NCBI GenBank assembly: GCA_965235115.1
Contig: OZ249436.1
Coordinates: 5,272,001-5,336,000, forward strand
Direction of reading: 5' to 3'
DNA length: 64,000 nt
Source: Laetmonice hystrix
Taxonomy: Eukaryota
Below the pieces are notes generated by a model. It saw only the letters and a program-made list of their open reading frames with translations. It had not been told where the DNA came from and ran no database searches. Each line of letters begins with the position of its first letter. Positions within the stretch are counted from its first letter, which is position 1. Positions 6,637 through 64,000 of the stretch are shown piece after piece. Position numbers and translations under genes: made by a program.

Positions 6637-9600
6637 GTAAGAGACTGGGAATTTAAAAGTAAGAAAATATTGTAATTGAAACCTGGTATTTGAAATCAAT
6701 TTGTAATCAATCAAAGTCATGTGCAGGGTTGTTTATTTTCAGACCGGAGAAGTGATTATCAATTACAACAAACTTCATGCTGACCCCAAACAAGGAAAGA
6801 CCCTAGATATAGGTAGGTACAACAAGTGAGGTATTGTGCATAGGGCACACACAGCTGACACAAGTCATGTATGATCATGACAATTGGAGGTAAAGTAACA
6901 AACAAACAAAAAGAGAATTGGTGCATAGTTAGTAATAAAAGGCAGGGAAATACGATGTGAGAACTGTCACTCGTGCAAAATAATGTTTCCCTTTATATAA
7001 ATAGTATGCATTTTTTTATCTTCAGGTTTCATGAGAGTTTTAAAAATCAGGTCTTTTTATGCAGTTGGTTGATCTTCTATTTCAGTGCTGAAGAAGGTGA
7101 AGCACCGAGTAGTGGAGTCGATGAGCTCTGGCACAGCTGACGCATTGGGCTTGAGCAGGGCCATCCTCTGTAATGATGGTTTGGTGCGTAAATTGGAAGA
7201 ACTGGAAAAGACGGCAGGCATGTACAAGGGGCTGATGGAGCACACCAAGAAATTACTGAAGGCATTCTTTGAGCTCTCACAGGCACACAAAGGTATGCAT
7301 TCTAGGCACAGACGATATAACACTAGTCAAGTTGATCAGTCTACTTTCAGTGATGTAATTTTAAGGTACTGTTAGTAATTTTTGTTGTATTCAGAAGTGT
7401 ATACACTACAGATAATAACAGAATTTTTGTATTGTTATTTACTCTAAGGAAAGTTCAATTTTCGAAAATTTTCAAGACACGTTCCCTTAAGAATAGTAAT
7501 GTTATTACTTTAATTATTCTACAATGAAGTGTATATATGGATATCAGTTCTGGATAAAACGATTAACTTTGACAAGATCTGTGCCATGTTTACTGACCAG
7601 AAAGAACTGATATTGAAAAACCATGGAGATATCATTAAGTTACTGGCATGTAAGCCAGACTATTGTCATCAAGTGGGGACTTCCTGGTGTCATTGTTGTC
7701 GGTCAGTGTCACATGGTAAATCTATTGTACAGCTCTAAAATACCCTCCCTATCTCGGCTTGTTGTCACAAACGTAGTGGGTTTTGAAATGTATGTAAACT
7801 ACAAGAAACATTTGATTTGGAATAAGCTTGAAATTTAATATTAATTTATTTTGGGTGAATTTATTCACTTATTGCAGCATACAAATATAAGAAGTAGAAG
7901 TGTTTATTTGAATTGTAAAAATGTTGGACATGTTTTTAGTCCCCAATGTGCATGAGGTACATAAGTAAACCGGTCCTGGTCCCAAGGTTACTTCTCCAGT
8001 TCCTGGTCTCTGTTGTCAAGGTTACCTGTCTGGTTATCTTGACAGGTCCTGGACCCTGTTGCCAAGGTTACCTGTCTGGTTATCTTGACAGGTCCTGGAC
8101 CCTGTTGTCAAGGTTACCCGTCTGGTTCCTGGTCCCTGTTGCCAAGGTTACCTGTCTGGTTACCTTGACAGGTTCTGGACCCTGTTGCCAAGGTTACCTG
8201 TCTGGTTACCTTGACAGGTTCTGGACCCTGTTGCCAAGGTTACCTGTCTGGTTACCTTGTTCTGGACCCTGTTGCCAAGGTTACCTGTCTGGTTACCTTG
8301 ACAGGTTCTGGACCCTGTTGCCAAGGTTACCTGTCTGGTTACCTTGACAGGTTCTGGACCCTGTTGCCAAGGTTACCTGTCTGGTTACCTTGACAGGTTC
8401 TGGACCCTGTTGCCAAGGTTACCTGTCTGGTTACCTTGTTCTGGACCCTGTTGCCAAGGTTACCTGTCTGGTTACCTTGACAGGTTCTGGACCCTGTTGC
8501 CAAGGTTACCTGTCTGGTTACCTTGACAGGTTCTGGACCCTGTTGCCAAGGTTACCTGTCTGGTTACCTTGACAGGTTCTGGACCCTGTTGCCAAGGTTA
8601 CCTGTCTGGTTACCTTGACAGGTCCTGGTCCCTGTTGCCAAGGTTACCTGTCTGGTTACCTTGACAGGTTCTGGACCCTGTTGCCAAGGTTACCTTTCTG
8701 GTTACCTTGACAGGTTCTGGTCTCTGTTGCTAAGGTTACCTTTACGTTTAGTATTAAGGTATTCATTGCATGATGACGCCCACTCATTCCCGCATTATGA
8801 TATTGGGTGTACCTGTGATCCTCGTGCACTCTCTCTGTCTACATCAGGGTGGATTTCCCATGGTAACTAGCACAGAACCAAACAACCTACCATTTTATAA
8901 CAAGAGCTGACCTTATTATGTTACCATGGGGGATCGTGTATGTATCTGTGGTTGCCTTATCCCTCTCTTCCAGCCTTTGGAGACGTGTTCTTTGCTATTG
9001 GTGTACGTGAACCCCAGCCCAACGCCAGCGGAGCATTCACTCAGTTTGGTGAGGCTCACCGGGAGATTGAACGCTATGCAATCCGCATGCTCAAAACTTG
9101 CAAACCTGTAAGTGAATGTTGACCAGCCATTGGTCATAGCCTGTCTCAGAGATAGACCCTTGATGTAGTATGTGTCTGGTTGGCTGCTCACAATTTTCAC
9201 CCAGCCCCCATTTAAGTAAAAGTTTTTTTGGTATTGTATGAAGTATCATCCTGGCTATTCACAGAGTTAACTTAGGGTCATGGGATGTCATATGGTGGCC
9301 AGCCAATCAGACACGTATAGTAGAGAACATATAATCTCACACACTCTGCACACGTCAAGGCAGTGATGCAAATAACCCCTGCCCGCCCGCCCACCCACCC
9401 GGCCAACATACTGCCTGATGGAAAAGGCCTCGTTCTTCTGGAGCTTTGGTTGTTTTCTCTTACACCCACCACAGTACAACACTGCATGTGGATTTCAAAC
9501 AAGCACGTTTTGGTTTGATCAGCCCCCAACTGGCAGATGGTGGATTTCGGCATTCAGGAATAAAAGAATGATTTTTAGTACAGAACTAATACATTTACCG

Positions 9601-12600
9601 CCTGAGTCTAGTTTGGGGCTGTGTCGCTTTTATATTTCAGTTTGCTTATGTTACAAAAATTGCCTGGTTAGGCTGAAGTTATGTGAACGAGGGCTCCACT
9701 TCTGGCATATTAATGTACTTTCAGAATTTGGAGAGGTATTTGCAGCCATAGGGGTGCGGGAACCACAGCCGAGTGCCAGCAAAGCCTTCAGCGTTTTCGG
9801 AGAGGCACACAGGCAGATAGAACGTTATGCCATCAGCATGCTCAGAACCTGCCGGCCTGTAAGTCTACAATGTGTGGACCGAGTGACTCACCTTAAGGCC
9901 GCATACTCCCACTCAAAGAATTAGAAGAGTTTTTATTTACGTTTTGAACCTTGTGAATCCTGAGCTCCCCAATCCAATCAACTCTATCCTGTCCAAATAG
10001 CAGGAGGCCCAGCCACCCTTTCCTGACCTGTTCATGAGACCCAGCCACCCTTTCCTAACCTTATAAAACCTGACCTGTCCAGGAGACCCAGCCACCCTTT
10101 CCTAACCTTATAAAACCTGACCTGTCCAGGAGGCCCAGCCACCCTTTCCTAACCTTATAAAACCTGCCCTGTCCAGGAGGAGACCCAGCCACCCTTTCCT
10201 AACCTTATAAAACCTGACCTGTCCAGGAGGAGACACAGCCACCCTTTCCTAACCTTATAAAACCTGACCTGTCCAGGAGACCCAGCCACCCTTTCCTAAC
10301 CTTATAAAACCTGACCTGTCCAGGAGGCCCAGCCACCCTTTCCTAACCTTATAAAACTTGACCTGTCAAGGAGGAGACCCAGCCACCCTTTCCTAACCTT
10401 ATAAAACCTGACCTGTCCAGGAGGAGACCCAGCCACCCTTTCCTAACCTTATAAAACCTGACCTGTCCAGGAGACCCAGCCACCCTTTCCTAACCTTATA
10501 AAACCTGACCTGTCAAGGAGGAGACCCAGCCACCCTTTCCTAACCTTATAAAACCTGACCTGTCCAGGAGGAGACCCAGCCACCCTTTCCTAACCTTATA
10601 AAACCTGACCTGTCCAGGAGACCCAGCCACCCTTTCCTAACCTTATAAAACCTGACCTGTCCAGGAGACCCAGCCACCCTTTCCTAACCTTATAAAACCT
10701 GACCTGTCCAGGAGGAGACCCAGCCACCCTTTCTTAACCTTATAAAACTTGACCTGTCCAGGAGGAGACCCAGCCACCCTTTCCTAACCTTATAAAACCT
10801 GACCTGTCCAGGAGGAGACCCAGCCACCCTTTCCTAACCTTATAAAACCTGACCTGTCCAGGAGGCCCAGCCACCCTTTCCTAACCTTATAAAACCTGAC
10901 CTGTCCAGGAGGAGACCCAGCCACCCTTTCCTAACCTTATAAAACCTGACCTGTCCAGGAGACCCAGCCACCCTTTCCTAACCTTATAAAACCTGACCTG
11001 TCCAGGAGGAGACCCAGCCACCCTTTCCTAACCTTATAAAACCTGACCTGTCCAGGAGGAGACCCAGCCACCCTTTCCTAACCTTATAAAACCTGACCTG
11101 TCCAGGAGGACACACAGCCACCCTTTCCTAACCTTATAAAACCTGACCTGTCCAGGAGGAGACACAGCCACCCTTTCCTAACCTTATAAAACCTGACCGT
11201 GAAATTGGTCCTGTGTAGATCAAATGAGCAAAAAATCAAAAGCCCAGTGGCATTAATATTAGAATTGCTAGATCTTGTGACTAAGTTCTGCACATTCTTA
11301 GCTTATGTAGAGCAAATGTCAGTTAACCATAAATCACGCGGTGCTGGTACATTGAACACATAGGCAGTAGGTTAGTGCTTACTAACAGGGGCACTGCTAG
11401 TGTTGTAGGTATAGTTAATGCCTTACTTACACATATATCATGTTATGAGGGAATATGAGAGGCCAACAGCATACAGCAGATATCCTACTGGTTAAGAAAA
11501 ATCTGGTGCAAAAAAAGGCAGGAAAGAGGTGCATTTTCAAAGGTTTTTCATGATTGCTTATATCGTTGGATCTTTACCATTTTATATGTGAGCAGGTAGT
11601 AATCCTAGAAGTATGGATGTAAGAGTCTAATGACACGCAGGAAACAATACGGCAGAACAGTTGCCTAATATGGACCGTATTATTTACAAGTAGACAGGAA
11701 TTTGGTCATCTTTTTGAAAAATAAATGTGGACGTTGGCCTGGTACTATTTAAATATCTTACAGTTACAGTACAATGCTTGAGTAATACGTGTACATGCTT
11801 CATTTAGTTTATATACCAGGTAGCTTCCGTTGGGAGTATTAAACGTGAACAACAGGCCATCGCCTGAGGCTGGCGACATGAAGACATTCATAGGCGTAAG
11901 AGCCTGGGGGAAGTCCCCCCCCCCCCCAATTCAGTCAAAACTGAGGAAAATTCGGGCAAGGCAAAAAGAAAAAAAATCGGACAGCATTTTCGGGCAAATG
12001 AACCCCCATGAAGACATTTGTCATATTATACGTTCAGACTATCTGACGTTCGAGTTCATGTCTTTTCAATTACCACACGGGTGGGGGCATCGTTTCCTGG
12101 GGACTTGTATAGATATGTGAATATTCAGGGAAAGTCACATTAATGGAAAATAACCTCAATTAAGTATTTCTCCCCCTTGTGCCTCTAAAAATGTGTCTTT
12201 GAGGAGTTCTGCCCAAAGGCAAGGTGTTTGCTTTGGATATAAGTGTGACCTTGTTTTCAGATGATTAGTGACCTCAACACGTATCTGAACAAAGCTGTCC
12301 CCGACACGAGGCTCACCATCAAAAAGTACCTGGACGCTAAGTTTGAATACCTGGTGAGACACATTTAGAATACTCTGATCAAACTAACAGGGTTCGTGTT
12401 ATAGGCCCTGTCACACCTTGCTGGATAGCATAAATGGATCATCTCCGTTTGCATGCATTTCTTGACCGTTTCTCGTTCGCCAAATGCGTTCCTTGTCAGG
12501 CGAAGTCTGTTCAATCCAGAGAAACGCCTGAGGGCATCGAGTAGCAACGGAGACGACTTTCACCACCGGATGGTTAATTTTTACCAAGTTTCTCTCCGTC

Positions 12601-47800: not shown

Positions 47801-50798
47801 CTATCCCCAAGTAACAAACAAACAAAGATTACACATCTAGAGATGCTGCAGGCAGAAAACACCAGGGTGCAGCTCAGCTGACTGCACTGCCGCCTTCTGG
47901 CCAGCGGTGGAATCACCACGTACACCTGGCCGGGCTGGCAGGCACCTGTGGGTCTGAGGCGAGAGACAGGTTAAAGCAATGATAAGCGCAAAATGGCTAC
48001 ATTTTTGATACGTCAATTTGAAACTACGCCCCCCAAAATTATGATTCTTCGGCCACATGTAGAACTGTCAAACGTATAGGTCTCGTACGTTCGCTACAGA
48101 TATATGGTTGTGATGTGTACACTTCCCATTTGAGTATCTTCTCCAGATTTTAACATTAGAATGTCGTCGCCTGTACCTTTCATTTCTAGCTACCTCACTG
48201 TAGTGTTTGCATGACTGCTATAGGCCAGCCGGTAAAATGTTGGGACTTCTCACTCTACTGGTTGGCTTCCCACAATGCTTGGCCCCACAGTGTAATGTTT
48301 GGCCTCACTGTACACTTTGGCCTCACTGTAGTGTTAGCTTGGGTGCTAGGCCACCCAGTATACCTTGTAGCGATTCCTCCCTCTACTGTTTGGCCTTCCT
48401 GTACCGTTTGCTTGTATACAAGAGTAGCCAGTAGTATAGGGACGCCTCATGTTTCATGTTTCCATGCCTTTATTGTCCAGGAGGCAGGCCATACGTTTCG
48501 TTTATCATCTACTCCAATCTAATCTGTGTGCCCTACAGACCATCGGTAAGCGTCCGACAACGTTGTCAGGTCGTACCAATGACTGTTTGCCGTAAATGTT
48601 TTGTTAACAATGGCAAATGACGTTGTACGCCTTTTCTATATCAGATATCCTATCCCCTAGTAACAAACAAACAAAGATGACACATCTAGAGATGATGCAG
48701 GCAGAAAACACCAGGGTGCAGCTCAGATGACTGCACTGCCGCCTTCCGGCCAGCGGTGGAATCACCACGTACACCTGGCCGGGCTGGCAGGCACCTGTGG
48801 TAAAAGCCGGTAAAATGTTGGGACTTCTCACTCTACTGGTTGGCCTCCCACAATGCTTGGCCCCACAGTGTAATGTTTGGCCTCACTGTACACTTTGGCC
48901 TCACTGTAGTGTTAGCTTGGGTGGTAGGCCACCCAGTATACCTTGTAGCGATTCCTCCCTCTACTGTTTGGCCTTCCGGTACCGTTTGCTTGTATACAAG
49001 TGTAGCCAGTAGTATAGGGACGCCTCATGTTTCATGTTTCCATGCCTTTATTGTCCAGGAGGCAGGCCATACGTTTCGGTTATCATCTACTCCAATCTAA
49101 TCTGTGTCCCCTACAGACCATCAGTAAGCGTCCGACAACGTTGTCAGGTCGTCGCAATGACTGTTTGCCGTAAAGGTTTTGTTAACAGTGGCAAATGACG
49201 TTGTACGCCTTTTCTATATCAGATATCCTATCCCCAAGTAACAAACAAACAAAGATTACACATCTAGAGATGCTGCAGGCAGAAAACACCAGGGTGCAGC
49301 TCAGCTGACTGCACTGCCGCCTTCCGGCCAGCGGTGGAATCACCACGTACACCTGTCCGGGCTGGCAGGCACCTGTGGGTCTGAGGCGAGAGACAGGTTA
49401 AAGCAATGATAAGCGCAAAATGGCTACATTTTTGATACGTCAAATTGAAACTACGCGCTCCAAAATCATGATTCTTAGGCCAGATGTAGAACTGTCAAAC
49501 GTATAGGTCTCGTACGTTCGCTACAGATATATGGTTGTGATGTGTACCCTTCCCATTGGAGTACCTTCTCCAGATTTTAACATTAGAATGTCCTCGCCTG
49601 TACCTTTCATTTCCAGCTACCTCACTGTAGTGTTTGCATGGCTGCTATAGGCCAGCCGGTAAAATGTTGGGACTTCTCACTCTACTGGTTGGCCTCCCAC
49701 AATGCTTGGCCCCACAGTGTAATGTTTGGCCTCACTGTACACTTTGGCCTCACTGTAGTGTTAGCTTGGGTGCTAGGCCACCCAGTATACCTTGTAGCGA
49801 TTCCTCCCTCTACTGTTTGGCCTTCCTGTACCGTTTGCTTGTATACAAGTGTAGCCAGTAGTATAGGGACGCCTCATGTTTTATGTTTCCATGCCTTTAT
49901 TGTCCAGGAGGCAGGCCATACGTTTCGTTTTTCATCTACTCCAATCTAATCTGTGTCCCCTACAGACCATCGGTAAGCGTCCGACAACGTTGTCAGGTCG
50001 TCGCAATGACTGTTTGCCGTAAATGTTTTGTTAACAATGGCAAATGACGTTGTACGCCTTTTCTCTATCATTGGGGATACCGATCCTATCCCCAAGTAAC
50101 AAACAAACAAAGACTAGATACGTTGTGGAGTACCACAATGGATCCCATCCCCGGGGTGTCCCATGTAACATGTTCTGAATAGGGATAACTATGGTACTAT
50201 CTTGCACTCGTGACGACTTATGAGCCTTAGAAGATGGAAGTTACGTCATTATGACCTTATGCTACGTCATAAATATTGATCTCAATGGACTTCCTATTCA
50301 TGTTCAAAAATAACTATAGGTGTATCTAGCACCGTTTACTAGTTACAGGCTTCTACCAATCCTTAGAAGGGCTCAGTTACGTCATAAGGATGTAATAGAT
50401 CACACAACAGAATAAATCTTGGTGTCAATTGAAAGAACATAATGAGGACTTCCTGTTTATATTCAATACTAACTATGGGTCTAACTCCTACCATTTACAA
50501 GTTAAAACCCTGAGAAAATATCGATGACATCGTTATGTCATGGGTCACGTGACCTAAGAAATAATGATGCCAAACGAAAGAGTATACATGACTTCCTATT
50601 CGTGTTCAATAGTAACTATGGGTCTAACTTCAAGCATTAACAAGTTATATCCCTTAGAAAATATCGATGACAGCTTTACGACGTCACAGGTCACGTGACC
50701 TTAAGGATGACGATACCAAGTGATAGCAAGTTATAGCCCTCACAAAATATAGGTTCACTGGCTGTGGTAATCAGTACCAGTTCAATCCAGTATTAGCT

Positions 50799-50887
50799 TG
50801 TCAGATGGCGTAGCACTGGCAATAAGTGTCTTGACTCACATGCTATGGGTCGCCGGTTCAATCCCAGGCCGAGTCACCTATTTTTTT
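50799..50887 (+). pseudogene. tRNA-derived (SINE-head-like) Pol III cassette inside the Helentron-like element
   Basis: A-box-like tggcgtagcactgg, loop ctcacat (Val-CAC-like), B box ggttcaatccc (50855-50865), then a T run. Partial second copy gttcaatcccaggccgagtcac at ~50911. Stems do not form a complete cloverleaf. Confidence 0.55.
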
Positions 50888-51500
50888 GGACTTTTACCGG
50901 AAGGGTCCCGCGTTCAATCCCAGGCCGAGTCACGTTTCTTTTTGTTTTTGTTTTTTCCCTCTAATTTTTAAAAATGGTCACGTGACCTGAAAAAAAAAAT
51001 ATCATAAAAGAGCATAATGACTTCTTATCTGTGTTTAATAGTAACCAATGCCAAATCTGGCACCGTTTACAAGTTCTAGAAAATTGACAATTTTTCGAAA
51101 TTTCAAAGTCACGTGATTCAGCGAATATTAGTCAAATCGCTTATCTTTTGATGATTTGAGACAAGCTCATGTTAGAGAGTCCTTCTGCCTAATATTGTCG
51201 AATTTCACCAAAAAATGAAGAAGGAGTAGCGATTTAAGAGATTTGTGACTGAGGACACAGTTCTCCCAAAGTTCAAGGTCAAATGACAAATGAAGGGTCC
51301 ATGTTAGACTAGACCCTTGCCTGATTAAAACGCCATGATGGGGTTTGGAAATTCCCAATATGAACGTCATGACGTGACGTCATACGTCACGTCACGTGAT
51401 ATGTCACAACTCATTGTCTGACCAGTCCTTGTCATGGTCAAGATGTGTGCCAAATTTGATTGAGATATCTTGAAAACTGACTGAGATAGACGCCACTGTT

Positions 51501-51524
51501 TACTACTACTACTACTACTACTAC
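51501..51524. repeat. (TAC)8 microsatellite
   Basis: tactactactactactactactac. Confidence 0.9.
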
Positions 51525-52099
51525 AACGCAAAGAATAACTAGACCCGTTGCGGTGATAACCACAATGGATCCCATCCCCGGGGGGGTCCCGTCTACAATG
51601 TCCTGAGCTACGGCTATTTAAAATGATGGTGTCACATGAAAGAGCTATTAGTTCCTAATAGTAATAGTAAGTATGGCTCTAACCATTTACAAGTTATAGC
51701 CCTGAGAAAATATGTATGAGCCCTATCTTGAGCCCATTAAGACTTATAATACCCATTAGAAGATGCAAATGATGTCAATCAAAAGGGGACGCATGATTTC
51801 CTATTCGTGTTCAATATTGAGTATGGGTCTAACTCCTACCATTTACAAGTATAGCCCTGCGAAAAAATAAAAAGGCCTAGGGCTAGGCTAATTTGGCTGC
51901 AAATGCCTGACCTTAGAGTATGATTCAAGACTCTAGCATTGACGAGTTATGAGTTTATGCCGTGCAAAATCCAGGGGGGGGGCACGGGAATTTTGGGACT
52001 TGGCAGAAACACAGCACCAATCGATATCCCTATACTGTGTGCTAAGGACGAGTATGTGGCAAACAACAAGTTCACGTTACTTACATAGACAAGAGAACA

Positions 52100-53503: not shown

Positions 53504-53799
53504 GAAAAAACTCACCTATAGATGAATGGGGCCAAATTTGTTCTTGGCAACTCTTTCGATCCGCCCATCTGACATACTGCTAGCAGATGGGCCATCCAGC
53601 ATCGTAGCTGGACTGGTAGAGTCCTCTATACTGATAGTTTGTCGATCTGGTATAGAGGTAGTTCGTCCATCTGGTAAGCAGATTTGTTCTCGCCAACTGT
53701 TTTGATCCACCCATCTGACATACTGGTGGCAGACGGGTCATCCAGCATCCTAGCTGGACTGGTAAACTCCTCTACTGATAGTTTGTCTATGTAGTATAG

Positions 53800-55340
53800 T
53801 GATAGTTCGTCCATCTGGTAAACTGGAATTTCGTCCTTCTGATATACTGGTAGTTTGCGGATCTAGTATATTGGTAGTTTGTCCTTCTGGTAGAGTGGTA
53901 GTTCATCCATTTAGTATAATGGAATCTATCTGGTATACTGGTATTTTGTCCATGTGGTATACTGGTAGTTCCTGAAGCTGGTAGACTGGTAGTTCATTTT
54001 GTGGTATATTGGGAGTTCATCTTCTAGGTAGAGTGGTAGTTAGTCCATATGATATACTGGCATTTCGTACATCTGGTAGAGTGGTAGTTTGGTGATCTGG
54101 TAGGCCTATATTGGTAGTTCCTCCTTCTGGTAGAGTGGTAGTTCGTCCTTTTGAGATCCTGGAGTCTATCTGTTATGCTGGTAGGTCGTCCTTCTGGTAT
54201 ACTGGTAGTTCGTGCATTTGTGTTAATGGAGTCGATCTGGTATACTGGTAATTTGTTAATCTGGTATAATGGTAGTTTGTTCATCATGTATACTGGTAGT
54301 TTGTTCATCATGCATACTGGTAGTTTGTTGATCATGCATACTGGCAGTTTGTCAATCTGGTATCCTGGTAGTTTGTCCATCTGGTAAAGTGGTAGTTCGT
54401 TTATTTGGGATACGGGAGTTTATCTGGTATACTGGTAATTTGTTAATCTGGTATAATGGTAGTTTGTTTATCATGTATACTGGTAGTTTGTGCGTCTGGT
54501 ATACTGGTAGTTTGTTTATCAGGCATACTGGTAGTTTGTCAATCTGGTATCCTGGTAGTTTGTCCATCTGGTAAAGTGGAAGTTCGTTTATTTGGGATAC
54601 GGGAGTTTATCTGGTATACTGGTAATTTGTTAATCTGGTATAATGGTAGTTTGTTCATCATGTATACTGGTAGTTTGTGCGTCTGGTATACTGGTAGTTT
54701 GTTTATCAGGCATACTGGCAGTTTGTCAATCTGGTATCCTGGTAGTTTGTCCATCTGGTAAAGTGGTAGTTCGTTTATTTGGGATACGGGAGTTTATCTG
54801 GTATACTGGTAATTTGTTAATCTGGTATAATGGTAGTTTGTTCATCATGTATACTGGTAGTTTGTGCGTCTGGTATACTGGTAGTTTGTTTATCAGGCAT
54901 ACTGGTAGTTTGTCAATCTGGTATCCTGGTAGTTTGTCCATCTGGTAAAGTGGAAGTTCGTTTATTTGGGATACGGGAGTTTATCTGGTATACTGGTAAT
55001 TTGTTAATCTGGTATAATGGTAGTTTGTTCATCATGTATACTGGTAGTTTGTGCGTCTGGTATACTGGTAGTTTGTTTATCAGGCATACTGGCAGTTTGT
55101 CAATCTGGTATCCTGGTAGTTTGTCCATCTGGTAAAGTGGTAGTTAGTCCATTTAGGATACTGGAGTCTATCTGGTATACTGTTAGTTTGTTTAAGTGGT
55201 GTACTGTTAGTTCATCTTCTTGTATACTGATAGAGTGGAGTCCATTTGGGATACTGGACTTCATTCGGTATAGTGGTAGTTTGTGAATCTGGTATGCTAG
55301 GGTCTGTTTAGTATACTGGGGGTTTGCCTGTCTGGTATAC
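53800..55340. repeat. 11/22-bp minisatellite with a 187-bp higher-order unit
   Basis: Unit tctggtatactggtagtttgt-; the ORF track repeats at 54352, 54539, 54726, 54913, 55100 (187-bp period). Confidence 0.93.
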
Positions 55341-55726: not shown

Positions 55727-58700
55727 TTAAATTTTTAAGAATACTGCATCATGATAACTGTAATATGTTTGTAATACTCCACAGTTTTTGAAATCCACAT
55801 TTTTGACATAGATCACATCTATCAGGGTATTTCCTAGGGTCGTTCCTTGGGTGATTAATTGTTGGTAATTATTGCGAGACATGACATTTTTGATTGTGTT
55901 CTGGCCTTTCATTAAATCTTCATTGAAGTCACCAGCAATTACATAACCCGAATCCTTTACGGTTTCTTCCATTTTCTGTATAAGGTCTTCGAGAGCTGGA
56001 CAGAACAAGTTTGTGGAGTATCGGGACGGGCGGTAAATTACACAAATAGTTAATGGTTTTTCATCAGTGACCAACACAACTGGAATGAATTCAAGGTTTC
56101 TGACAGACAGATGTAGAAGACTATGTGTGATTGTTTTTCTCACATATACTGCCACACCACCTTTTTCAAGCTTTGCCATTGATTTAATATCATAACTTTC
56201 TTGTCTTGTTTTGGATAAAAGATTAAAGTCTGGGTGCTGCAAGTTTGATAGATCTTCACGAGTAGCGAGCCACGTTTCTGTCAGTAATACAACATCTGAA
56301 GTAAATATCTGGAAGTGATTTCTTGTACTTTGAAAATTCTGAACCAATCCTTCAACATTGTGGTGGACAATTAGCAGCCTCCTTTCTGCAATATCAAGTT
56401 CATTTGGTACGAGTGGTTCCATTAGTTCCAATCCCTGTGCAACTCCTTCGTTCCTGTATATTTTATCGGCATTGTAATCTAGGAGATAGAGACCAGCTAT
56501 GTTTGTGACTCTAGAAAGGGCAACATAAGCATGTCCAGATTCAAACATAGTTTTCATGGAGATCACTATTTTGTCCACTGTGAGACCTTGCACTTTGTGT
56601 ATTGTACATGCCCAAGCTAATCTCAATGGAAACTGTCGCCTGATTCCTCCTTTTCTTTCTTGTTCTACAGGATCCAGAGATTCTTCATATGGCATTACTT
56701 TCACTGAACCTATTGGAACTGTGCCGTTATTCTTTTTTTCAGTCAATGCACGGCCAACTTTTTCATTGTCAAATTTAATACACACTGCTTCTGGTAAAGG
56801 TTTACCGTGTTGTGCAGGTAATATGGCAGTTATAGTTCCTATGGCACCATTTGTTATTCCATGTTCAGTGTCAATGTTCTTTGTTACCATGACTCTTGCG
56901 CCAACTGCTATTCTTAAACAACTGGGTAGGCTGTCACTTTTGTCATTGGATTTCTTTGCTGCCCTTTCCTCCAGTTTTGCAGTCTTTTTGTTTCGGATCA
57001 CATCAATAGCTCTAATATCACAGATCTGAGTGCACTTACTTTGTAACATTGTTTCATTGTGTTCATCTACCTCCTTATTTTTCGCATAGATAAACAAAGC
57101 ATCTTGTGGACATTGGTCAGATGGGGTAATTCGTGATAACAGTGTCTTTGTATCGGATTCACTCAAACTTTCAGTTTTTGGTTTTGTTCTGAGCCGATTC
57201 AACAGTGCTGCGAACACGGCGTCTTCTTTTTGTCTCATTATTTCTGTAAGTTCAACATACCTGAAGTATTGCATCCACAAATCACAGGTATTTGGTACAC
57301 AAATTGGTGAACCGGCCCTTACAGGTGGAAGCTGATAGAAATCGCCAACAGCAAGAACAGATACACCTCCAAAAAGTTCTTTACTATGTTTCAGTTGTCC
57401 CAATCGTTTGTGCACATAATTCAGTATGTTGCTTCCCATCATTGAAATTTCATCGATTACAAGAATTTTGATTTCACATAAGGTTGTATTCATGGTATTT
57501 AGGACACTTTCAGTCAGTGGTATGTATGGGCCTTTGCGGGGTTTAATTATTTTGAGTAGAGAATGAACTGTGGTTCCATCAACATTGAAGGCAGCCAGTC
57601 CGGTAGTTGCTGTCAGGAATACTGGTGGTAGGTTCTGCTCACTTTGTTGCCCAAGTAGAATTTTGGTAGCTTCATAGCAGATACATTTGATTAAGAGCGA
57701 TTTTCCAACACCTGCTGCACCACTAAGGAATATTCTAAACGGTTCAGGGCGTTCACCATTGACTTTATCTAGGCACCACTTTCGTATTGTGTAAAATACC
57801 TGTTGTTGTTTTTTATTCATACTCTTTAACATCGGCCTAACAGCTTTGGTAACACATCCATCAACACTGTGGTCAATAGCAAGTCCTCCTGGGATATTTC
57901 CTCTGTCCTCATCACCAATACAGTCGTGATCGTTTGCTAATGGTTCATCACAGCACTCTTCAAAAGCTAGGTTTTCTCGTTCTGCTTCCAATCTACTTAT
58001 CTCCGCTTCATTAGCAATGCTGGCCCATGCATCTTCCAAATTCTCAGAATTTTGCATCATTTGCCATGCTTCCTGCAAGACATCGGTATCTTTTTCATAT
58101 TTCTGCCTATTTTGAGTCACAATCAGTTTCACAGGTTCTATGTCATGGTCCTCACTCACTCTGACTGCTCCGTTTTCAAAGAATTCCTCATATGTAGCAT
58201 ATGCTTGGGGCTTTAATTGACACTTGTGTCTCCATGGCAAGTAAACCTTCATTTGAGCTTGATAATATTTCTCTGGTTTTGTTGTCTTGGAATGCCTGGG
58301 GTACCGAATCACAGCAAAGTTTTCACTTCTTCTTTTCTGTATAATACCACAATTGTTTGTCAGTGTAATTGTATTTCTACTCTTTGCCTGTCCATAAACC
58401 ATTCTGTACTCTGAAGCAAACTGAGCTAGACACATGTTATCAAATTCCACAGTATCAGGTCGTGCTTGGTATCTATCTATAATGTTTTTCATCCAGATTT
58501 CATCATCATCCTCATTTGATTTTGCTTTTGCTTCGATTTGTGATAATGGTAGACTCATTCTTGTTGCATTTTCATCCACTGGTAGGTTAACAACTGCACG
58601 AGAGCATTCTTTCAAGTGTAGATTACACATGCGATGTGCGGCTTCCTGACAACTTACTTCTCGGTAGTTCAGGTACACATTTCCTAATTTCCTCATTTCA

Positions 58701-61700
58701 GTTTTCAAGTCAATATTACCTTCTTTGAGCTCTCTTTGAGCATTGCGTAGAATTTCTGACAGTTCATGCTCAGCTTTACTGATGTATGACAGAATGTACA
58801 TAACACAACTGTATGGGTCTGTGATGTACTGTATGTCCATGTTAGCATTCCAGATGTCAAGGAGAGCTGGGTTGTGAGGATTTGTCCAACAGTCTTTATA
58901 CTCTCGTTTCATTACTATAGATATTTTCTTTGTTGCGATATCGAAATACTTTTTATATGTTTGCCATGTCAGTCCTGCTTTTTGCAAGAGCTCATCAATA
59001 GATGCATCTTCATTTCCAACATCTTCATTCAACAGGTCTCTGAGTTTTGACAATTGTTCTGAGGCATGATGCATGTCTGCCTTGCTTGGTGACTGTCCGT
59101 CAGGCATGGTTGCAGGTCTTGATACAAATGTCCTCTTTGCAACTGGTTTTGGGAAGTTGAATCTACATGGGCGATTCCCCTTTTTGCATGATTTTGTATG
59201 ACGCTTACTATGTTTCTGAAAGCGGTTCACCTTTTCATGCAATTCGTCACCTTCAGGTGGAACTTGACACGAGATGTACTGATCGATAAAGTCACATACA
59301 GTTTGGTCTGAATCTCGGTCTAAAATTGGTGCATCTTTTACCCAGAATAAACAATGTATATGTGGACTTCCTCTTGCCTGCCATTCAACTCTGTAAAAAT
59401 GATCAATGACTTCACCTATTGGTTTTGCTGGAGACATTATCACTTCATTGAGGAACAGTTTTACTCTGTGATCAAACATACGTGCACAAGTAACGGGATT
59501 GGATGCTAGAATGTTGCACTTTTCTTCCCATGACAAAGAATCAACATCAACTGTTTCTCCCTGCTGAGCTTTTATAGCAGTCACAATTTCAGGCCAATCA
59601 TTGTTACAGCTAAATGTACAAAAGAATGTTGGAATACCAAGTTGTCTGATCATGGCAAACAAATCGTGTTGGGTCATTTTCCAATAATCTGGTGAACCTT
59701 TCAGTGTGGGAAAATGTCGGAAACCTGTATCTTCTCTCGTAACATGATCGATACCTTTTCTCTGAGATAATGTGCCTGCTGTTATCTTCCTTCCATCTTT
59801 TGTTTGCTTTCTTCCCTTTCTCAGTGCAATGGATATGTTGCTGGCCATGAATTTCAATTCTGTGATGTACAACGCAAAGAATATGTATTGTGGGTCCTTG
59901 GCAAAACGGTTATCTACGTTCATTAGTCTGGCCTGGAAATATTTTGATGGGGATAATTCAACTGATCTTTCTTCTGTTAAAGTATTTCGACCATCTGGGA
60001 AATGATTTGGAAATGCAAGGGCTTCACCTGATTTGTTTGCATACAAATTCGTGGGTCTATTTTTTTCACATGGTGCAATAGACAAAATACTATCTGGACA
60101 CAATGGTAAGGCCTCCTGGACCATGTCAACAGGCATGAGGAACGTGTCTAATAGAGGTCCTGTTTTCACCTCCTCACACTCATTGTCATCATCATCATCA
60201 TCATCGGACACAATCTTATCAGTATTCTCAGTGTGGGAAGTTCCATTCGTTCGTTGCTGATCAGTCTCAGCAGTGTCAGGTTTATCACTGTCGTATTGCA
60301 CATGTCTTGATTGATCAATTTCAATGTCTGCATAATGTACATTTGCAATTTCTTCTTTTAAATATCTAAGAGCATCGTGAACTTTTTTCAAATCAACTTG
60401 CTTGTACTCATAATGACCTTCATATGAAAGCCTTCGTTTCATTTTGAGCCGAATGATTTGATCCGTGTCAAACCTGGGTAGACTATTTATTGTATCTTGC
60501 AAGTCTGACGGTACCAAAACACATGGGCCTTTTAGTTTTTTTTGGCCACCTTTTGGTAATGTGATGAGTTTCATGAAGGGTACGATTCGCGATATGAGGT
60601 GTTTCTCCAGTATGTTCAATGTTTGGAGTTCATGGGGTAGTGGCTGCAATTCCAATCTGTTTGTGTATGCTTCGTGTGGCATTTTCCCAGCCTTCAAATA
60701 TCTGTCGCACGTATGACATATGTACAAATCTCTCCGTGATTCCCTCAGTACATCACCACTTTGTGTGCACTTTGGATTATAATTGTGTAATAGATCTTCA
60801 CTAATGCAGGCTTTAGCCAAACGTTTCTGAGTAGCAGAAGTTTCATACTTTGTGTTATCGCATTTCAGAACCTGTTTTTTGAAAAGCAGTCTATGGCAAA
60901 CTGAACAGACATATTCTGGGTATTCCTGGACTTTGCTATGAAAAATAGTTTTCACGTTTTGAATCTTTTTACGCTGTTGATTATTTTGTTCCTTCCTTTG
61001 ACAAGCCTTCAGTCTAAGTGCTATAACATTTCTCAAGTACTGGCGTCTTTTCATCTTTTTCATACGCTTCCTTAATACAGGATCAGTCATGGTGGCTAGG
61101 TATTTCAACAGCGCTGATTTTTTTTTCTGTTGCTGATATTGAACATTGGTTTGGTATTTTAATCTCTGTGCCTCATTTATTTTTGACCTGAACAATGCAT
61201 TCTGTCGGTACTTTATCTTGCTGTAACTTTTCACCTTTTGTCTAAAATCCAGATTTTGTTTGTATTTCTGAGAACTGTAACTTTTCAGCTTTTGTCTAAA
61301 ATCCAGATTTTGTTTGTATTTCTGAGAACTGTACCTTTTTGCCTTGTTTTTGAAATCCAGATTTTGTTTGTATTTTTGTGAACTGTAACATTTAATTTTG
61401 TTTCTGTATGTTTCATCAGTTGCATACTTTGTCTTACCATACTGTAAACATTTTTCTCGGTAACTTATATGACTTGCGTATTTACATTTTTTTGATCGAC
61501 TTTCGTTTCCTTTAATCTCTAAATTGAGCCTTCTTTTTTGTGTGTATTGTCTTCCATTTTCTTTAAATTCCAAGTCTAGTCTTCGTTTTCTCATGTATAT
61601 GCGTTCATCTTGTTGGAAACCTGAATCTAGTCTACGTTTCTTGATGTATTCTCGTTCATCTTGTTGGAAGTCTGAATCTAGTCTTCGTTTCTTGATGTAT

Positions 61701-63970
61701 TCTCGTTCATCTTGTTGGAAGTCTGAATCTAGTCTTCGTTTCTTGATGTATTCTCGTTCATTTTGTTGGAAGTCTGAATCTAGTCTACATTTCTTGATGT
61801 ATTCTCGTTCATCTTGTTGGAAGTCTGAATCTAGTCTACGTTTCTTGATGTATTCTCGTTCATCTTGTTGGAAGTCTGAATCTAGTCTTCGTTTCTTTAT
61901 GTATTCTCGTTCATCTTGTTGGAAGTCTGAATCTAGTCTTCGTTTCTTGATGTATTCTCGTTCATCTTGTTGGAAGTCTGAATCTAGTCTTCGTTTCTTT
62001 ATGTATTCTCCTTCCCTTTTTCGGAAACTTGCATCTTGACGCTTTTTGTTAATGTATTCCTGGTCAGCATGTTTATTTGCTAGATTGAGCCTACGTTGCT
62101 TCTTGGACTGTCTTTCAGTCTCTAGGAATTGGCTATCTGATCTTCTCTTTCTCATATATTGTCTCATGTATTCTTTTCTGTCACGTGTTTCAAGTTCAGT
62201 CTTTTGATTATTTCTTTGAGCATGGTCTGCTGGGGGCAAGTCTTCCATAGAGCTGCCAACACTGTTTACAACTGTTAAGGCAACAAGTCGACAACGTGTA
62301 ACACTTTTCTTCATGTTTTTTAGCAGTTTTTCGATAACCTCACTGACTTGGTCTACACTTTTGCACACAACAAGCATGGCTTTCCCAAGATGTGGTTCTT
62401 TTACGTTGTACGGACTGGGAGTAAATACAACCCATGAGTCATGTTTTGTCTTCAAGGCAGTAAGGAAGCAGTTTTCTGTGGATATAATCAGGCTGTTTGA
62501 AACAGAAAAGGCCTTTTGAACCTCACTGCAAAGATTAGTGCTTTTTTGCCTTCGAGTTTTCATACCACCGCTCAAAACAATGTCAACAGACTGTATTTTT
62601 TGCACAACAGAGGATCTGTCAGTTTGTTCATGCAGTTTAACCACTGCTTTCTCGATATTGTTTGTGTCAACCTTTACCTGTGATTTGCTACAAAGTCGAG
62701 CCCCCTCTAGAAGTATATAGTTAACATCAGAAGGATGATATTGTTCACAGTTTGTTAGATACATGAGACTTGTGAGCGCATTACTCAGTGACAATCTTTG
62801 TTTATTGTACTGTGAAAAGCAATCATCGGCTTGACTTATGTTACCATAGACAACATCTTTATAGATGTCAGTGTCACAGGATTTATTTGAAATCATTCCA
62901 TGGCTTTGCAGTGGTTCAGACAGATGGGGTATTTTATTGGTTGACTGTTCATCTTGCTGATCATGGACTGTTAATTCTTTGTCTGTTCTATGCGTGTCAG
63001 TAGGTTCAGTTAAAATTGAAAATCGGTTGGAACATTGAATTCCATGAGAGTTCTTACAGATGGGATCTGATAATTGAACATTTTGCACTGGCTGTACAAC
63101 AGGCACATCACTTCTTTCCACAAACCTTTTAGTTCTCACACCAGAAATCATAGACAGGTTCCCATCATCATGTTTTATCTGTACTGGTTGCATTTCGTAT
63201 CTGACAGTACATGGATCATTTGTAGTACTACACACAAATTTCAGTAGCTGGTCTTGTAATTCTGTCAAGGTGGTGAAACACATAAATATGGCAGTTCCAT
63301 TGCAAGTTTGCTGACCTTGTATATCTCTTGAATGAGAGTCAAAGAGGCAGAATTTTCCTTTACAATTCAGGAATACACTGATGGCTTCAAGACCTATGAT
63401 AATGAGACCTGCATTGTGTCGATCAAACGTGTCTTTTACAGCTTCAGCAAGTGATACATTGTCATCATCAATGCTGACACAGGTACCCAGTGAGAGGTCA
63501 CTTTCGTTCATATCACACACAAACTGACTGCTGCCACTTTCTAAATGACGGGAAAGATCATTGAACGACAGATAATCATCTGGTACATGAACCCTTTGTT
63601 CTCTTATTTTGTTCCGAACTTTTTCATATACAGTAGAACCTTCAATTAGAACTCTATCAACGTCAGCTGTTGAGACATTTCTCATATTCTGAAGCCTTTC
63701 AATGGCTACTACGGCAGCACCTACACAAAATCTACCTCTGACATTGTCTGGAAATTTGACATTCCCCTGGTGCATACTGCCTGGAACAACACATGTTTCA
63801 AGATCAATATCTGAAGTTTTACCATGAGCAGAACAGCAGTCACTTGATGGGGTTTTGGAACTTGTATTACTTGTAGTCCTTTTCACATCTTGTACAATGT
63901 TAATGTCCTCGACAGCCAGTTTGGGTTGTCTATTTGTCGTTTGCTGCTCTGGTACATTTGTAGATTGCAT
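55727..63970 (-). CDS. Helentron Rep/helicase/endonuclease polyprotein (at least 2747 aa, N-terminus probably outside the window)
   Basis: HUH Rep motifs PTFFCTFSC, YRVEWQARGSPHIHCLFW, YILSYISK. PIF1 SF1 helicase motifs GAAGVGKS, IDEISM, GDFYQLPPV, LTEIMRQ, QFPLRLAWACTIHKVQGLT, YVALSR. C-terminal APE/EEP endonuclease motifs HNVEGL, LTETWL, GGVAVY, IYRP, GDFNED, IDVIY, YSYH. CxxC...CxxC Zn finger. No stop in frame from 63970 to 64000. Confidence 0.96.
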   Translation of the reverse strand: MQSTNVPEQQTTNRQPKLAVEDINIVQDVKRTTSNTSSKTPSSDCCSAHGKTSDIDLETCVVPGSMHQGNVKFPDNVRGRFCVGAAVVAIERLQNMRNVSTADVDRVLIEGSTVYEKVRNKIREQRVHVPDDYLSFNDLSRHLESGSSQFVCDMNESDLSLGTCVSIDDDNVSLAEAVKDTFDRHNAGLIIIGLEAISVFLNCKGKFCLFDSHSRDIQGQQTCNGTAIFMCFTTLTELQDQLLKFVCSTTNDPCTVRYEMQPVQIKHDDGNLSMISGVRTKRFVERSDVPVVQPVQNVQLSDPICKNSHGIQCSNRFSILTEPTDTHRTDKELTVHDQQDEQSTNKIPHLSEPLQSHGMISNKSCDTDIYKDVVYGNISQADDCFSQYNKQRLSLSNALTSLMYLTNCEQYHPSDVNYILLEGARLCSKSQVKVDTNNIEKAVVKLHEQTDRSSVVQKIQSVDIVLSGGMKTRRQKSTNLCSEVQKAFSVSNSLIISTENCFLTALKTKHDSWVVFTPSPYNVKEPHLGKAMLVVCKSVDQVSEVIEKLLKNMKKSVTRCRLVALTVVNSVGSSMEDLPPADHAQRNNQKTELETRDRKEYMRQYMRKRRSDSQFLETERQSKKQRRLNLANKHADQEYINKKRQDASFRKREGEYIKKRRLDSDFQQDEREYIKKRRLDSDFQQDEREYIKKRRLDSDFQQDEREYIKKRRLDSDFQQDEREYIKKCRLDSDFQQNEREYIKKRRLDSDFQQDEREYIKKRRLDSDFQQDEREYIKKRRLDSGFQQDERIYMRKRRLDLEFKENGRQYTQKRRLNLEIKGNESRSKKCKYASHISYREKCLQYGKTKYATDETYRNKIKCYSSQKYKQNLDFKNKAKRYSSQKYKQNLDFRQKLKSYSSQKYKQNLDFRQKVKSYSKIKYRQNALFRSKINEAQRLKYQTNVQYQQQKKKSALLKYLATMTDPVLRKRMKKMKRRQYLRNVIALRLKACQRKEQNNQQRKKIQNVKTIFHSKVQEYPEYVCSVCHRLLFKKQVLKCDNTKYETSATQKRLAKACISEDLLHNYNPKCTQSGDVLRESRRDLYICHTCDRYLKAGKMPHEAYTNRLELQPLPHELQTLNILEKHLISRIVPFMKLITLPKGGQKKLKGPCVLVPSDLQDTINSLPRFDTDQIIRLKMKRRLSYEGHYEYKQVDLKKVHDALRYLKEEIANVHYADIEIDQSRHVQYDSDKPDTAETDQQRTNGTSHTENTDKIVSDDDDDDDNECEEVKTGPLLDTFLMPVDMVQEALPLCPDSILSIAPCEKNRPTNLYANKSGEALAFPNHFPDGRNTLTEERSVELSPSKYFQARLMNVDNRFAKDPQYIFFALYITELKFMASNISIALRKGRKQTKDGRKITAGTLSQRKGIDHVTREDTGFRHFPTLKGSPDYWKMTQHDLFAMIRQLGIPTFFCTFSCNNDWPEIVTAIKAQQGETVDVDSLSWEEKCNILASNPVTCARMFDHRVKLFLNEVIMSPAKPIGEVIDHFYRVEWQARGSPHIHCLFWVKDAPILDRDSDQTVCDFIDQYISCQVPPEGDELHEKVNRFQKHSKRHTKSCKKGNRPCRFNFPKPVAKRTFVSRPATMPDGQSPSKADMHHASEQLSKLRDLLNEDVGNEDASIDELLQKAGLTWQTYKKYFDIATKKISIVMKREYKDCWTNPHNPALLDIWNANMDIQYITDPYSCVMYILSYISKAEHELSEILRNAQRELKEGNIDLKTEMRKLGNVYLNYREVSCQEAAHRMCNLHLKECSRAVVNLPVDENATRMSLPLSQIEAKAKSNEDDDEIWMKNIIDRYQARPDTVEFDNMCLAQFASEYRMVYGQAKSRNTITLTNNCGIIQKRRSENFAVIRYPRHSKTTKPEKYYQAQMKVYLPWRHKCQLKPQAYATYEEFFENGAVRVSEDHDIEPVKLIVTQNRQKYEKDTDVLQEAWQMMQNSENLEDAWASIANEAEISRLEAERENLAFEECCDEPLANDHDCIGDEDRGNIPGGLAIDHSVDGCVTKAVRPMLKSMNKKQQQVFYTIRKWCLDKVNGERPEPFRIFLSGAAGVGKSLLIKCICYEATKILLGQQSEQNLPPVFLTATTGLAAFNVDGTTVHSLLKIIKPRKGPYIPLTESVLNTMNTTLCEIKILVIDEISMMGSNILNYVHKRLGQLKHSKELFGGVSVLAVGDFYQLPPVRAGSPICVPNTCDLWMQYFRYVELTEIMRQKEDAVFAALLNRLRTKPKTESLSESDTKTLLSRITPSDQCPQDALFIYAKNKEVDEHNETMLQSKCTQICDIRAIDVIRNKKTAKLEERAAKKSNDKSDSLPSCLRIAVGARVMVTKNIDTEHGITNGAIGTITAILPAQHGKPLPEAVCIKFDNEKVGRALTEKKNNGTVPIGSVKVMPYEESLDPVEQERKGGIRRQFPLRLAWACTIHKVQGLTVDKIVISMKTMFESGHAYVALSRVTNIAGLYLLDYNADKIYRNEGVAQGLELMEPLVPNELDIAERRLLIVHHNVEGLVQNFQSTRNHFQIFTSDVVLLTETWLATREDLSNLQHPDFNLLSKTRQESYDIKSMAKLEKGGVAVYVRKTITHSLLHLSVRNLEFIPVVLVTDEKPLTICVIYRPSRYSTNLFCPALEDLIQKMEETVKDSGYVIAGDFNEDLMKGQNTIKNVMSRNNYQQLITQGTTLGNTLIDVIYVKNVDFKNCGVLQTYYSYHDAVFLKI

Positions 63971-64000
63971 GACGTTAGGTTTGGTGGATGTGCTGTTGGT

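Follow-up and report, generated by a model that had tools for sequence, protein, structure and literature searches.

A Helentron polyprotein from Laetmonice hystrix that appears to open with an intact VTD deubiquitinase domain and a selectively maintained inactive copy

Introduction

The DNA analysed here is a stretch of 64,000 nucleotides from Laetmonice hystrix (assembly GCA_965235115.1, contig OZ249436.1, positions 5,272,001 to 5,336,000), referred to below as the window, whose minus strand carries the long open reading frame (ORF) of a Helentron transposon. By its sequence the encoded transposase polyprotein opens with a module of two domains of the VTD deubiquitinase (DUB) type. The first, domain 1 (63161-63802, minus strand), has an intact active site and is very probably a working cysteine deubiquitinase of the viral and Helitron VTD type. 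The second, domain 2 (62255-62866, minus strand), is in all likelihood a VTD copy of long standing; its catalytic triad was lost before the element families diversified, and purifying selection has since maintained the domain. The explanation taken as a whole, in which an active deubiquitinase is accompanied by a selected pseudoenzyme adaptor in an intact Helentron, is favoured here by a modest degree.

The wider question addressed is the reason for the presence of VTD deubiquitinases in both Helentrons and herpesviruses. The enzyme family, its location in Helentrons, the occurrence of tandem VTDs, their deubiquitinase and deneddylase activity and the connection with herpesviruses can all be read in the published passages compared at the end of this paper, and the gain is incremental, since family, Helentron presence and herpesvirus link are in print; what is apparently new, as far as those texts show, is a fixed, selected and charge-reversed pseudo-VTD.

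Domain 1 and its active site

Domain 1 matches PDB entry 8ADD, a zebrafish Helentron deubiquitinase, both as a single sequence (phmmer E 2.9e-13) and as a family profile (E 2.8e-25), and its predicted model (pLDDT 90) has the papain-like VTD fold, with a TM-score of 0.88 to 8ADD (E 3.6e-18) and of 0.78 to the herpesvirus enzyme M48 of MCMV (2J7Q). A sequence-only reading of the window had proposed a deubiquitinase resembling those of the herpesvirus large tegument proteins (MEROPS C76) rather than an OTU protease, and these structural matches bear the proposal out; Pfam detected no OTU domain in the window ORF, in its upstream part or in six of six sibling ORFs. The same reading had named Pfam Herpes_teg_N (PF04843) as a check on both domains. 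Neither window domain is matched by it; with a limit of E<=1 the family reaches 13 out of 26 relatives of domain 1, the lowest E being 1.7e-5, and none of 26 relatives of domain 2. Herpes_teg_N annotation is precomputed on the close relatives P0002, P0080 and P0081. Clostridial toxin repeats, which appeared as a PDB match to the FDSH strand of domain 1, were rejected as weak, short and spurious.

The catalytic codons of domain 1 lie at 63769-63767 (Gln), 63727-63725 (Cys), 63340-63338 (Asp) and 63334-63332 (His). The last three are the residues that had been numbered C82, D211 and H213, a numbering that proves to be counted from a methionine at residue 11 of the window frame, and all of the motifs quoted with them fall in one stop-free minus-strand frame (55727-64000). 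The conservation of the site was evaluated in 41 domain-1 and 41 domain-2 sequences drawn from 38 loci, consisting of the best 20 hits and 18 stretches spanning the divergence. The cysteine and the FDSHSR motif are kept in all 41 copies of domain 1. DrT1-VTD2 binds the R-x-R tail of ubiquitin through two acidic residues, D376 and E377; an acidic residue stands at the E377 position in 35 copies of domain 1 and at the D376 position in none.

Domain 2: fold, residue states and charge

The two domains were claimed to be collinear, and the claim holds, with the strength of the evidence depending on the method of comparison. BLASTP aligns them over 72 aa only (E 6e-6), while profile-profile comparison with hhalign extends the alignment to 202 columns (98.5%, E 1.5e-15). 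Sequence searches of the PDB with domain 2, single or as a profile, returned no match. The predicted model (pLDDT 85) superposes on 8ADD over 195 residues at an rmsd of 3.5 A (Z 19.6); on 2J7Q it reaches Z 16.2, and Foldseek returned matches with E from 1e-9 to 2e-6. The proteins pulled out by a domain-2 profile number 73 and can mostly be recognised as VTDs, and the top Atlas match is a Herpes_teg_N cluster (0.96), a recognition that lies below the mark set by the tool. N_Asn_amidohyd, suggested by Pfam at E 2e-4, below the cut-off, and in 6 of 26 members, was set aside in view of the fold search, which favours a VTD.

In the window copy, serine replaces the catalytic cysteine (62791-62789) and T-P-S replaces D-S-H (62422-62414). 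Across the copies the nucleophile position holds serine in 40 of 41 and alanine in the remaining one, the histidine position holds asparagine or serine in all 41, and the aspartate position never holds aspartate, so that the cysteine with Asp-x-His occurs in none of the 41. The proposal of one intact and one dead domain thus describes every copy sampled. It may be asked whether domain 2 is nevertheless still active, through the serine as nucleophile or through some cryptic activity of the cleft, for example on ester-linked ubiquitin. The serine is encoded by all four TCN codons, the oxyanion glutamine is present in 35 of 41 copies, and esterase activity without cysteine is reported for some deubiquitinases, among them variants with Cys changed to Ser and OTULINL, a pseudo-DUB (bioRxiv 10.64898/2026.10.20.760496), but according to the same source the activity is nearly gone once cysteine and histidine are both removed. 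Domain 2 lacks both, and no position holds a substitute histidine conserved in at least 37 of the 41 copies, which leaves residual catalysis improbable.

The elements of 8ADD that recognize ubiquitin were located in domain 2 by mapping the 8ADD numbering through two alignments (8ADD to domain 1, and domain 1 to domain 2). The acidic site for the ubiquitin tail falls in an eight-residue gap, being deleted or replaced by alanine, and at the position of the ubiquitin-binding hairpin, which is needed for recognition in the characterised enzymes (passages of PMC9741609), there is a basic KTRxxK sequence (KTRRQK in the window copy, 62560-62543). Since both recognition elements are absent, canonical ubiquitin binding by domain 2 is less likely, and on the modelled correspondence domain 2 would no longer recognize ubiquitin in the canonical way. 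The arginine and lysine of the R-x-x-K loop are invariant in 26 of 26 domain-2 members, and the mean net charge of domain 2 is +5.6 (isoelectric point 8.7) compared with -10.9 (isoelectric point 4.9) for domain 1. Because of this basic surface and the conserved loop, domain 2 can be read as a binding module. There is about an even chance that it acts without catalysis, as an adaptor that binds some acidic partner (for example DNA, chromatin or a protein of acidic charge), aids the transposase core and helps to position the deubiquitinase.

Selection and pairing across the genome

Selection was estimated on the 15 elements for which every one of the six regions was available; the other four of the 19 long ORFs, which lacked the full set within the retrieved stretch, were dropped. 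The ratio of nonsynonymous to synonymous substitution (omega, or dN/dS) is 0.287 for domain 2, 0.192 for domain 1, 0.206 for the endonuclease, 0.159 for the Zn/DUF6570 region and 0.098 for both Rep and helicase, and fixing omega at 1 for domain 2 makes the fit 160 log-likelihood units worse. In 12 close pairs the pooled dN/dS is 0.33 for domain 1, 0.35 for domain 2 and 0.64 for the variable linker between them (62867-63160, minus strand; 75-210 aa across copies). These estimates bear on the possibility that domain 2 is a decaying relic, retained merely through its position in the reading frame. Domain 2 does evolve more quickly, its copies being on average 48% identical in pairs compared with 56% for domain 1, but its omega of 0.29 is below that of the adjacent linker and neutrality is strongly rejected, and a near-constant length, 15 invariant columns of its own and a confidently predicted fold are hardly what such decay would leave behind. 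A relic is accordingly the least credible of the explanations weighed here. The substitution pattern largely refutes it and indicates that domain 2 is under purifying selection.

A search of the genome yielded at least 152 domain-1 and at least 134 domain-2 matches. Among the matches listed, a filter for intact copies (near-full-length, stop-free and within an open frame of at least 2,000 aa) leaves 92 domain-1 and 96 domain-2 matches, domain 2 lies within 1.5 kb downstream of 90 of the 92, and one lineage accounts for about 80 long open frames, which span 45-100% identity in domain 1 and all carry the active-plus-dead module. The eight domain-2 matches that are unpaired after the filter each have an upstream domain-1 match in a broken or shorter frame. 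Three of the 38 loci hold the pair of domains twice, as a unit.

Variants of the architecture, in which the pair is duplicated as a unit or the order, judged by coordinates, is domain 1-domain 1-domain 2, are found at C19:15889847-15893209, C11:7318934-7322296, C20:1820389-1823700, C7:4655221-4658580, C6:26716919-26719330 and C12:29912535-29914946. At C5:29451244-29536789 there are four equal-scoring copies of the element, spaced about 27.9 kb apart, which form a head-to-tail array or a segmental repeat.

History of the two domains

Trees that include external VTDs were built from hits covering at least 165 profile columns, with fragments excluded and with active and inactive labels that are pattern-based and hence approximate. 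Among the external VTDs, the copies of domain 1 fall into a single group with strong support, and so do those of domain 2. Free trees keep the two groups apart, and a forced joint clade is tolerated by the approximately unbiased test (p-AU 0.51), so that these trees are compatible with an origin of domain 2 by tandem duplication and with one by separate capture.

Within the 15 elements, the domain-2 tree has 11 of 12 splits in common with the Rep tree and the domain-1 tree 5 of 12, and each domain rejects the tree of the other (p-AU 7e-4 and 3e-7). This conflict between trees argues that domain 1 has been exchanged between element families or lineages, and an exchange of domain 1 without domain 2 argues in turn against a tight, co-evolved interface between them. 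The point is relevant to a rival explanation, implied in the sequence-only reading, in which domain 2 serves domain 1 as a pseudo-DUB partner: it would tune linkage specificity, either by binding ubiquitin chains at a non-canonical surface or by packing against domain 1 and activating or inhibiting it allosterically. The strict order and pairing of the domains (90 of the 92 intact matches), their duplication as a unit and their opposite net charges are in keeping with such a partnership, and other pseudo-DUBs serve as activators and scaffolds of deubiquitinases (passages of PMC10919355). The loss or replacement of both 8ADD recognition elements, the range of linker length and the exchange of domain 1 alone tell against it, however, and a partnership of this kind is considered possible but rather unlikely. 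A predicted complex of the two domains, made without alignments and with controls not folded, scored 0.30, the mark being 0.34.

Domain-2-type sequences make up 5 of 73 representatives among the profile matches (P0001-P0005, ENA records that possibly come from the same host or a relative), and a word-indexed search of longer proteins gave two; this scarcity is weak evidence. Six other matches (P0011, P0013, P0018, P0031, P0037 and P0054) are long poly-VTD proteins in which several domains are dead and one active site looks intact, and no Rep or PIF1 motif was found in these six. Mixed arrays of intact and dead VTDs are therefore not, as such, unique to the Helentron lineage.

The element and its polyprotein

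The long exon of the polyprotein occupies window positions 55727-64000 on the minus strand as a single stop-free frame of 2,757 codons which is still open at the window edge. In the genome the full open frame is 2,902 aa, with 145 codons past the window, and it starts at a splice-acceptor-like site 411 bases outside the window; because the frame begins in this way, the methionine at residue 11 of the window frame is probably not the true start. A predicted first exon of 21 codons, basic in composition and with a phase-matched GT donor, lies 4,967 bases upstream of the acceptor, which would give a spliced protein of about 2,915 aa; the exon-1 region is also conserved upstream of sibling copies. 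A 1.7-kb high-copy insertion (L021:7304-8971; dozens of places, 95-99% identity) lies upstream of predicted exon 1 and is common to the two closest copies of the element.

Downstream of the two VTD domains, and on the same strand, the polyprotein contains a basic region of tandem repeats (61221-62014; 51-bp or 17-aa units x8.6 and 54-bp or 18-aa units x3.2), DUF6570 (60305-60688; Pfam E 3e-20) preceded by a Cys/His-rich stretch, an HUH-type Rep domain (Helitron_like_N, 59348-59941; E 2.2e-35), a PIF1-family helicase (56510-57820; PIF1 E 5e-20, with Pif1_2B and a weak UvrD_C_2) and a C-terminal endonuclease of apurinic/apyrimidinic (AP) type (Exo_endo_phos, 55781-56362; E 1.9e-10). Helentrons are distinguished by F/Y-x-R ahead of Rep motif 2 and by the serine in RGSPHxH (passages of PMC4067079), and the Helentron-type motif 2 FYRVEWQARGSPHIH is present in 19 of 19 long ORFs. 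DUF6570 is a marker of HLE2 (passages of PMC11417382), and the domain set of HLE2 subgroup b, a PIF1 helicase, an AP endonuclease and DUF6570 within one ORF, is found here by Pfam. Two further copies are 99-100% identical across the two-domain region, in open frames of 2,902 and 2,869 aa. These features identify the element as an intact Helentron (HLE2), consistent with recent copying, and they uphold the earlier claim of a fusion to Rep, helicase and endonuclease in an uninterrupted ORF. Related DNA is present in three sequencing runs (contigs, one sample).

The position of domain 1 at the N-terminus of a multidomain protein of 2,900 aa raises the further possibility that its chief role is to cut the polyprotein into separate enzymes; the sequence-only reading had suggested that it might process the polyprotein. 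The characterised VTDs, however, cut after the RLRGG tail of ubiquitin (passages of PMC9741609), LRGG occurs in none of the 19 long ORFs, and the recurrent L/R-x-G-G words fall within the helicase, so that this role is very improbable.

Elements of HLE2 subgroup b are expected to have subterminal inverted repeats, a hairpin at the 3' end and an insertion site at TT. The candidate 3' end of the present element (51537-51579, minus strand) consists of a subterminal 15-mer (51565-51579) and a 7-bp hairpin (51548-51565), followed by CTAG and then TT. Two other copies of the element cease to match at 51534, near this end, and the stability of the hairpin is no better than that of shuffled sequences (z -0.54). 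The 5' end lies more than 9.5 kb past the window.

Neighbouring repeats

Inside the element, downstream of the ORF, there is a tandem array of 24-bp units with a higher-order period of 187 bp (53773-55233). Beyond the candidate 3' end lies a 1.43-kb non-coding unit (50113-51538) with the same subterminal 15-mer and hairpin; it occurs in at least 32 places at 97-100% identity, in some of them in tandem beside another Helentron copy, and represents a partner that is non-autonomous or else an alternative end present in repeated form. A satellite at 16200-50113, with monomers of about 853 bp in 1,707-bp dimers (dimers 98-99% and offset monomers about 96% alike), adjoins the Helentron-type end at 50113. 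The match extends over this junction at several other loci in the genome, so that Helentron-type ends may carry the satellite along with them. Minisatellites with units of 46 bp and 50 bp occupy 8003-8741 and 10036-11198.

Function of the two-domain module

By analogy with the zebrafish homologues, domain 1 would most likely trim ubiquitin or NEDD8 from the transposase or from nearby host proteins, and the trimming would protect transposition from proteasomal or ubiquitin-dependent control. That a Helentron deubiquitinase counters host ubiquitin-dependent control is plausible and has already been proposed in print. Domain 2 would serve alongside it as the adaptor described above. A more specific version, in which the basic pseudoenzyme binds DNA or chromatin and steers the deubiquitinase to the site of transposition and element families exchange the catalytic domain among themselves, is speculative and, taken whole, unlikely.

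Several observations weigh against the combination of an active deubiquitinase with a selected adaptor. The position equivalent to D376 is acidic in none of the 41 copies of domain 1, and the hairpin of domain 1 is acidic, unlike that of 8ADD; because of these two differences the specificity of 8ADD cannot be transferred to domain 1. The basic charge of domain 2 fits a nuclear localization signal, or binding to the acidic domain 1, just as well as it fits an external acidic partner. The 41 copies come from one genome and include near-identical ones. The domain-2 data reject the Rep tree itself (p-AU 0.009), and domain 2 may follow Rep merely because it lies nearer to it and crossovers fall in the variable linker. 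The two domain-1 matches without a partner are divergent VTDs (27% identity), probably of another lineage, and other Helentrons in the genome may thus dispense with domain 2. Finally, in the zebrafish element DrT1, which has two VTDs in tandem, both domains are active (passages of PMC9741609).

The two divergent VTDs are located at C29:2439852-2440457 and C12:30330117-30330731, in open frames of 2,545 and 2,115 aa and with no nearby domain-2 match; these loci probably represent another element lineage and would be a useful control.

To the speculative version, in which the pseudoenzyme steers the deubiquitinase to the transposition site, belong two wider ideas: dead and active deubiquitinases may be paired repeatedly among transposons of the rolling-circle type, and the arrays of inactive VTDs in animal germline genes could derive from pairs of this kind. 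The series of about 80 frames is suited to finding the target that the deubiquitinase protects and the role of the pseudo-VTD.

Comparison with known systems

Erven et al. 2022 (PMC9741609), in the passages compared, describe Helentron VTDs from vertebrates, insects and cnidarians as well as molluscs, an element with two VTDs, insect arrays of inactive VTDs and a derivation of the herpesvirus enzyme from Helitrons. K48, K63 and K11 chains are substrates of the zebrafish Helentron VTDs, some of which, DrT1-VTD2 among them, act on NEDD8 as well; by the authors' proposal, VTDs shield the transposition proteins from degradation. They also state that presumed autonomous Helitrons keep all catalytic VTD residues, pseudogenised copies excepted, a statement that the sequences of the present lineage contradict as it is worded in those passages. 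DrT2 is described there both as having "a single active VTD" plus an OTU and as having "three intact VTD domains", and the legend of Fig. 1b mentions inactive VTDs, so an inactive Helentron VTD may already be drawn in that figure, although this is less probable than the contrary. No conserved inactive VTD in transposons was found in the literature covered, which leaves most subscription journals outside, and no function for an inactive VTD was found in the passages of the VTD literature compared.

Herpes_teg_N is recorded in the RepHel ORF of HLE2 subgroup b in the HELIANO survey (PMC11417382), which lists domains and, in the passages compared, does not mention their catalytic state. A UL36 match in fungal Helitrons (passages of PMC4289320) involves a different CDD model and a captured gene and was not used.

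The closest known systems are the zebrafish domains DrT1-VTD1/2 and DrT2-VTD (passages of PMC9741609), which have the VTD fold, the triad of domain 1 and the same location at the N-terminus of a Rep/helicase/endonuclease ORF. The tandem arrangement is that of DrT1, except that the second domain is dead here, and the present element lacks the OTU that DrT2 carries. The insect poly-iVTD proteins (Drosophila CG32436, CG4669 and others; passages of PMC9741609) likewise consist of inactive VTD copies, but these are in arrays outside transposons, whereas domain 2 lies in a RepHel ORF and forms a clade of its own; the insect arrays are, moreover, described as inactive, whereas the six poly-VTD proteins found here keep one intact-looking site. 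The large tegument deubiquitinases of herpesviruses (M48, 2J7Q; UL36/BPLF1; PF04843) have the same fold and the Asp-x-His architecture of domain 1, but they are virion rather than transposon proteins, show about 15% identity, and are represented by a Pfam family that misses the window domains.

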